In this document: positions 42,012-42,513 of the stretch, piece after piece
How the letters are laid out: each line of letters starts with the position of its first letter
How positions within the stretch are numbered: the stretch's first letter is position 1
Sequence record: OQ721909
Origin: Escherichia phage vB_VIPECOOM01
Length of the DNA: 64,000 bases
Direction: 5' to 3' (one strand)
Notes under the pieces: generated by a model
Database searches by the model: none
What the model was told of the DNA's origin: nothing
Seen by the model: the letters and a program-made list of their open reading frames with translations, nothing else
Position numbers and translations under genes: made by a program

Positions 42012-42065
42012 GGTAATAGTATCACTACCTCATCAGCATGTAAACAACTCTGTGAAATTATTTTA
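42012..42065 (-). promoter_or_regulatory. early promoter
   Basis: UP element, GTTTAC -35, GTGATACTATTACC -10. Confidence 0.6.
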
Positions 42066-42513
42066 AATCGTCTGCCCAATCGAGTTTAAGAGGTTCTTTG
42101 TATTCACGATCTAATACGACCGGAATTTGTACATCACCGCTAAATGATAAGGGCCCAACATTATAAGACAATGTTATATGCGGTGTGTAATCATCAAAAT
42201 CATGTGTAGCACCTAGTGCCCGCGCATACATGTGTCGACAGCGCAGATATTCAGAATCTAGCACAAGTACAAGAGTCGATCCATCTTGTGTTTTCCATAC
42301 TTCTAAATGTCCAGAAGAAGCTACTTCAAAACTTCCGCTCGATGGAACATATGGAACATTTATTCTTGAATAACATATGGTCGAATGAATTTTTTCTCTA
42401 GGAACTGGATTAGGAACACGTAAAGAGCGCTGAAGTTCTTCCAGCGCATCAAGTGTTAATTCTGAAAACTTAGCTGCTACATAAAGACCCGTTGAAAAGT
42501 CTTTAAATTCCAT
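42058..42513 (-). CDS. 57B: 2H phosphoesterase (gp57B; Acb1-type cyclic-nucleotide phosphodiesterase)
   Basis: 151 aa; two H-x-T/S-x motifs (HSTICYS, HITLSY) typical of 2H superfamily; position upstream of 57A. Confidence 0.8.

Follow-up and report, generated by a model that had tools for sequence, protein, structure and literature searches.

Escherichia phage vB_VIPECOOM01 carries an orthologue of T4 gene 57B predicted to encode the anti-CBASS protein Acb1

An open reading frame on the minus strand of Escherichia phage vB_VIPECOOM01, at positions 42058..42513 of the 64,000-nt stretch of DNA that was analysed (sequence record OQ721909; hereafter the window), is, judged by its sequence, acb1, the orthologue of T4 gene 57B in a Tequatrovirus and an already characterised gene, published in 2022. 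The gene is very probably functional, and its product would destroy the cyclic di- and trinucleotide signals of the host before these can activate the CBASS effector. Gene identity, the intact reading frame, the conservation of functional residues and synteny were established in this analysis, and the substrates, the mechanism and the in vivo role are taken from the literature on T4. Expression and activity of this phage's own copy are a strong inference, the activity because the protein is nearly identical to that of T4.

The acb1 reading frame comprises 456 nt, encodes 151 aa followed by a TAA stop and runs at full length from ATG to TAA, without frameshift or internal stop. The call rests on the ORF listing and on the Pfam, T4 and PDB matches; the first-pass annotation had given the coordinates exactly and had left the minus strand unstated. 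Two plus-strand ORFs located inside the gene (42216-42401, 61 aa; 42230-42373, 47 aa) were set aside as presumed antisense noise, since the family, structure and orthologue matches all fall in the minus-strand frame. Upstream of acb1 and in the same orientation are gene 57A, which codes for the tail-fibre chaperone (42513..42743, minus strand, 76 aa; Pfam PF17594 GP57, 161 bits; 93% identical to T4 57A), and gene 1, which codes for dNMP kinase (42743..43468, minus strand; Pfam PF21448, 353 bits; 95% identical to T4 gp1). The start ATG of acb1 shares bases with the TAA stop of 57A in the sequence TAATG (window 42511-42516), an overlap that suggests co-transcription and translational coupling of the two genes. 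The junction differs from the 4-nt overlap of T4 because 57A of vB_VIPECOOM01 is 76 aa long and that of T4, with four additional residues near the C-terminus, has 80 aa. The T4 annotation of 57B also starts one Met earlier, at an ATG that reads ATA in vB_VIPECOOM01; therefore, the second T4 Met is the sole possible acb1 start in this phage, and residue numbers here equal those of T4 minus 1. This comparison suggests that the annotated start of T4 57B may lie one codon too far upstream. A promoter/terminator scan revealed no dedicated promoter directly upstream of acb1, and its count of promoter-like sites (14, against 9.2 +/- 2.6 expected) was uninformative for acb1 itself. An Rfam scan of both strands of 41300-43700 produced one chance-level match (14.6 bits versus 53.5) and no evidence of an RNA element.

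Comparison of the acb1 product with T4 gp57B (NP_049750.1) showed that 150 of 151 residues are identical. The sole difference, I51 here for V52 in T4, is conservative and lies six residues after the first catalytic motif, in an alignment column that varies between V, I and K. The two coding sequences differ at five nucleotides, and the ratio of four synonymous changes to one conservative, non-synonymous change fits purifying selection on acb1. The order of genes on the minus strand around acb1, 4 - 2 - 3 - 1 (dNMP kinase) - 57A - 57B, is that of T4, and internal-protein genes followed by a tRNA cluster are found downstream of acb1. The proposal that this gene is the equivalent of T4 57B is thus borne out both by residue identity and by the shared position downstream of 3, 1 and 57A. 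The order gp3 - dNMP kinase - 57A - 57B is kept in Serratia, Aeromonas, Acinetobacter and Citrobacter phages as well as in T4. The 1.8 kb of DNA tested around acb1 matches Escherichia phage vB_VIPECOOM03 (OQ721911.1; Straboviridae, Tequatrovirus), in which positions 74058-74513 correspond to window 42058-42513, at 100% identity, and hundreds of T4-like phages at 97-98%. Searches with tblastn found the acb1 product in 1470 phage records, 444 of which carry a protein at least 99% identical.

Family and structure matches point to the same enzyme. Pfam PF23474 (Anti-CBASS protein Acb1) was matched with 201.2 bits (cutoff 27), the alignment of aa 8-149 covering profile positions 1-144 of 144. The best match among solved structures was Acb1 7T26/7T27 (E=5.6e-62; aa 8-148, 141 residues aligned at 67% identity), and the two HxT motifs fall in register in this alignment. 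Homology to 7T26, a 1.1 A structure, indicates a compact 2H phosphoesterase fold, and the full-length profile match together with the 141-residue structural alignment upholds the original assignment to the 2H phosphoesterases of the Acb1 type. A single-sequence AlphaFold2 model of the product (pLDDT 40.4, pTM 0.31) was too poor for independent confirmation of the fold, and NCBIfam and PADLOC scans of the product gave no matches.

The PHROG 755 profile matched the product as well, with 226 bits, and is labelled 'RNA ligase', a label that through this profile has reached OQ721911.1 and many RefSeq T4-like records. Taken literally, it would make the acb1 product a LigT-type 2'-5' RNA ligase or 2',3'-cyclic phosphodiesterase engaged in RNA or tRNA repair and not a nuclease of immune signals, a reading that could also draw on the phage tRNA cluster a few kb from acb1 and on a very weak match with Pfam PF13563 (2_5_RNA_ligase2; E=0.12). 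However, this match, the only other one in Pfam, is partial (aa 80-122) and scored 12.8 bits against a cutoff of 27, which places the protein outside that family, compared with 201 bits for the Acb1 family. Moreover, the 99%-identical T4 protein cleaves cyclic oligonucleotides and is required only on CBASS hosts (PMC9117128; HIDEN-SEQ), and ligase activity is not reported in the cited Acb1 literature. With the PF13563 threshold not reached and the Acb1 family strongly matched, we rejected the repair reading, which is largely refuted and to which we assign next to no probability. The label is a carry-over from the superfamily and amounts to systematic mis-annotation; among the matches listed, only one of 25 (PQ871103.1) is called 'anti-CBASS protein Acb1'. 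The label in the public record should be changed from 'RNA ligase' to 'anti-CBASS protein Acb1'.

The fold of the 2H superfamily is pseudo-symmetric, and each of its halves contributes one H-x-T/S motif with hydrophobic residues on either side. The two motifs that the first-pass annotation had read in this ORF were confirmed: HSTICYS (aa 43-49; 42367..42387, minus strand), with H43 and T45 equivalent to T4 H44 and T46, and HITLSYN (aa 112-118; 42160..42180, minus strand), with H112 and T114 equivalent to T4 H113 and T115. H-x-T/S occurs exactly twice in the acb1 product, and the His residues of the two motifs are 69 apart. A motif pair was rejected as sufficient evidence of a 2H protein, because at least two H-x-[TS] motifs were present in 16% of shuffled acb1 proteins and in 9 of the 75 window ORFs of at least 100 aa. 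By the same shuffling control, motif spacing, which had been put forward as support for the superfamily, is not significant on its own; what stands is that both motifs can be aligned with those of solved 2H enzymes, and it is because of this alignment that the pair counts as 2H evidence.

Conservation of the active site was analysed in an alignment of nine sequences, namely those of vB_VIPECOOM01, T4 and FBB1 together with homologues from phages of Serratia, Aeromonas, Acinetobacter, Vibrio, Citrobacter and Salicola, whose identity to the vB_VIPECOOM01 protein goes down to 27%. The tetrad H43/T45/H112/T114 was invariant throughout, and neither catalytic His motif was lost on alignment to characterised Acb1 proteins, the comparison by which the earlier claim had proposed to be judged. 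Ten further residues were also invariant (G9, Y11, P36, S49, V82, R93, G101, Y109, P111 and E137). All nine functional residues of PMC9117128 are present at n-1 (Y11, H43, T45, W73, F106, H112, T114, E140 and W146), among them the base-stacking Y11, W73, F106 and W146 (T4 Y12, W74, F107 and W147) and the adenine-contacting E140 (T4 E141). The C-terminal lid LDWADDLK (aa 144-151, T4 145-152; 42061..42084, minus strand) is identical to that of T4 and includes the stacking residue W146.

The function of the T4 protein is well documented. By activity-guided fractionation, Hobbs et al. 2022 (PMC9117128) traced an activity in T4-infected lysate to 57B and named its product Acb1, an identification that they demonstrated both biochemically and genetically, so that the description of T4 57B as Acb1 in the first-pass annotation agrees with the published record. 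According to the same study, structures 7T26/7T27 are those of Acb1 from Erwinia phage FBB1 and reveal a compact 2H fold whose pocket is U-shaped; Y12, W74, F107 and W147 make stacking contacts with the bases, E141 touches adenine N6, and in the FBB1 structure the C-terminal lid, residues 145-152, shuts over the ligand (PMC9117128). The chemistry is carried out by the HxT/HxT tetrad H44, T46, H113 and T115, T4 Acb1 H44A being inactive and H44A/H113A catalytically dead (PMC9117128). Deletion of acb1 from T4 caused a >300-fold defect on CBASS hosts and left growth normal on hosts without CBASS (PMC9117128). In the HIDEN-SEQ transposon screen, 57B insertions were depleted only on the CBASS host. 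Expression of 57B is middle/late.

By analogy with T4, Acb1 of vB_VIPECOOM01 would be a small single-domain 2H phosphoesterase acting on the cyclic di- and trinucleotide signals that a host CD-NTase would make when a CBASS-carrying host is infected. The enzyme would bind these signals in a U-shaped pocket through aromatic stacking by Y11, W73, F106 and W146 and a contact of E140 with adenine N6, and the lid (aa 144-151) would close over the bound ligand. The tetrad H43, T45, H112 and T114 would then direct metal-independent acid-base catalysis, in which the 2'-OH of adenosine is predicted to attack the 3'-5' bond; the reaction would pass through a 2',3'-cyclic phosphate and end in a linear product with a 3'-phosphate, e.g. 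GpAp. The CBASS effector would in this way stay unactivated and abortive infection would be averted.

CBASS might instead be one of several targets of the enzyme, its main natural selective value lying in escape from type III CRISPR systems with cA3 signalling or from other cyclic-nucleotide pathways. T4 Acb1 does cleave cAAA, and its discoverers proposed a possible evasion of type III CRISPR as well (PMC9117128); it also degrades 2'3'-c-di-AMP, and the structural group to which it belongs is broadly active on CD-NTase, regulatory and type III CRISPR nucleotides (bioRxiv 10.1101/2025.08.21.671373). On the other hand, cA4 is not cleavable by Acb1 (PMC9117128), and direct in vivo evidence exists for CBASS only (PMC9117128; transposon screen). 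We regard this broader reading as improbable as an account of the main selective value, and it would extend the anti-CBASS explanation without contradicting it.

The other of the two known T4 anti-CBASS genes is present in the window too. acb2, the orthologue of T4 vs.4, which encodes a cyclic-nucleotide sponge, lies at 28533-28796 on the minus strand (98.9% identical to T4 Vs.4; Pfam PF24729 Acb2_Tad1_hairpin, 71 bits). Because both genes are present, the phage, like T4, combines a counter-defence that degrades signals with one that sequesters them, and should resist many CBASS systems that use adenosine-containing 3'-5'-linked cyclic di- and trinucleotides.

The same activity may carry a cost, and this bears on whether acb1 has been maintained in working order. 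Over-expressed T4 Acb1 triggers the Panoptes guard system and the delta145-152 form does not, a result that the authors read as confirming that catalysis requires the lid (bioRxiv 10.1101/2025.08.21.671373). Type II Panoptes restricts Tevenvirinae whose acb1 is intact (Bas35-37); in Bas43 the gene has a nonsense mutation, and escapers of Bas35 have single-nucleotide changes in acb1 whose predicted effect is inactivation (PMC13577387). By analogy with Bas35-37, vB_VIPECOOM01 should be exposed to Panoptes guards that sense the loss of cyclic nucleotides, and such sensitivity could favour loss of the gene. The acb1 copy of this phage, which differs from that of T4 by one amino acid, might accordingly be imagined as present but decayed or re-specialised. 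Its full-length ORF with all catalytic, stacking and lid residues intact argues against this view, as do the placement of the single V->I change in a variable column, the 4 to 1 ratio of synonymous to non-synonymous changes relative to T4 and the occurrence of the protein at 99% identity or more in hundreds of phage records (444). We therefore consider decay or re-specialisation to be extremely improbable and retain an active anti-CBASS Acb1 as the preferred reading.

The region downstream of acb1 contains three copies of a repeat of ~71 nt (41372-41442, 41673-41743 and 42003-42073), which are 62-82% identical. Each copy is intergenic, precedes a minus-strand gene (trna.4, Ip and Ip, respectively) and has a minus-strand promoter-like site, TTTACA/TTTACT-17-TAnTAT; hairpins (I4, I10) are found in copies 41673-41743 and 42003-42073, and none was reported within 41372-41442. 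We take this repeat to resemble the 'promoter-early stem-loop' (PeSL) cassettes. PeSL cassettes have been reported to shuffle genes in T4-type phages. The third copy covers the final 16 nt of acb1 (..DDLK and the stop codon), and the next gene after acb1, an 85-aa Ip-like ORF, ends in ..EDLK and a stop within the second copy. The 3' end of acb1, which encodes the tip of the lid, could conceivably double as a recombination junction for Ip-gene cassettes, leaving the lid constrained by, or exposed to, shuffling; we hold this to be a rather unlikely reading. If true, it would speak to the plasticity of the genome at the acb1 border, with the function of the enzyme unchanged.

The product of T4 ipI blocks GmrSD-type restriction. 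No tblastn match to T4 ipI was found in the window, where two small Ip-like minus-strand ORFs take its place, at 41415-41660 (81 aa) and 41728-41985 (85 aa). The 85-aa ORF starts MKTFKEF, and the 81-aa ORF starts METKMKTFKEF from its first ATG, with the same heptad from its second Met. MKTFKEF is presumably an N-terminal sequence of the capsid-targeting type found in T4 internal proteins. Neither ORF matched a family in Pfam or NCBIfam, and the public record lists both as internal virion/head proteins. Elsewhere in the window, the orthologue of trna.3 (40773-41171, minus strand) is only 64% identical to T4, against 100% for trna.4 and 94.5% for trna.2, and has no Pfam match. Likewise, the orthologue of tk.4 (26382-26846, minus strand), a gene that the T4 annotation describes as a phosphatase bearing an A1pp motif, shares only 57% identity with T4, most of its neighbours being ~95-99% identical.

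The scientific value of the identification is small, as work published in 2022 already covers the gene, the structure, the mechanism and the role in vivo for a protein one residue different; its practical value lies in annotation and in host-range prediction for vB_VIPECOOM01.

Comparison with named systems places the protein of vB_VIPECOOM01 closest to T4 Acb1 (gp57B), the founding member of the family, with which it shares genomic position downstream of 57A, the tetrad, the stacking residues, the equivalent of E141 and the lid. Acb1 of FBB1 (PDB 7T26, apo; 7T27, with 3'3'-cGAMP) carries the motifs HTTIVYS and HITLSYN in register with those of vB_VIPECOOM01, and differs by one extra residue inserted behind the counterpart of aa 79 and by an F where T4 and vB_VIPECOOM01 have W74 and W73, respectively. 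2H PDE-9 (PDB 9Q2G, deposited as 'Anti-CBASS protein Acb1') is a distant sequence relative (E=0.0055) with the same 2H core and both His motifs alignable, but its lid is N-terminal and not C-terminal. Like T4 Acb1, 2H PDE-9 degrades 3'3'-cGAMP; unlike T4 Acb1, it is poor at cleaving 2'3'-c-di-AMP and fails to trigger Panoptes (bioRxiv 10.1101/2025.08.21.671373). Finally, the LigT / 2'-5' RNA ligase family (Pfam PF13563) belongs to the same 2H superfamily and has two H-x-T/S motifs, whereas the characterised T4 orthologue of the vB_VIPECOOM01 protein acts on cyclic oligonucleotides and not on RNA ends (PMC9117128).
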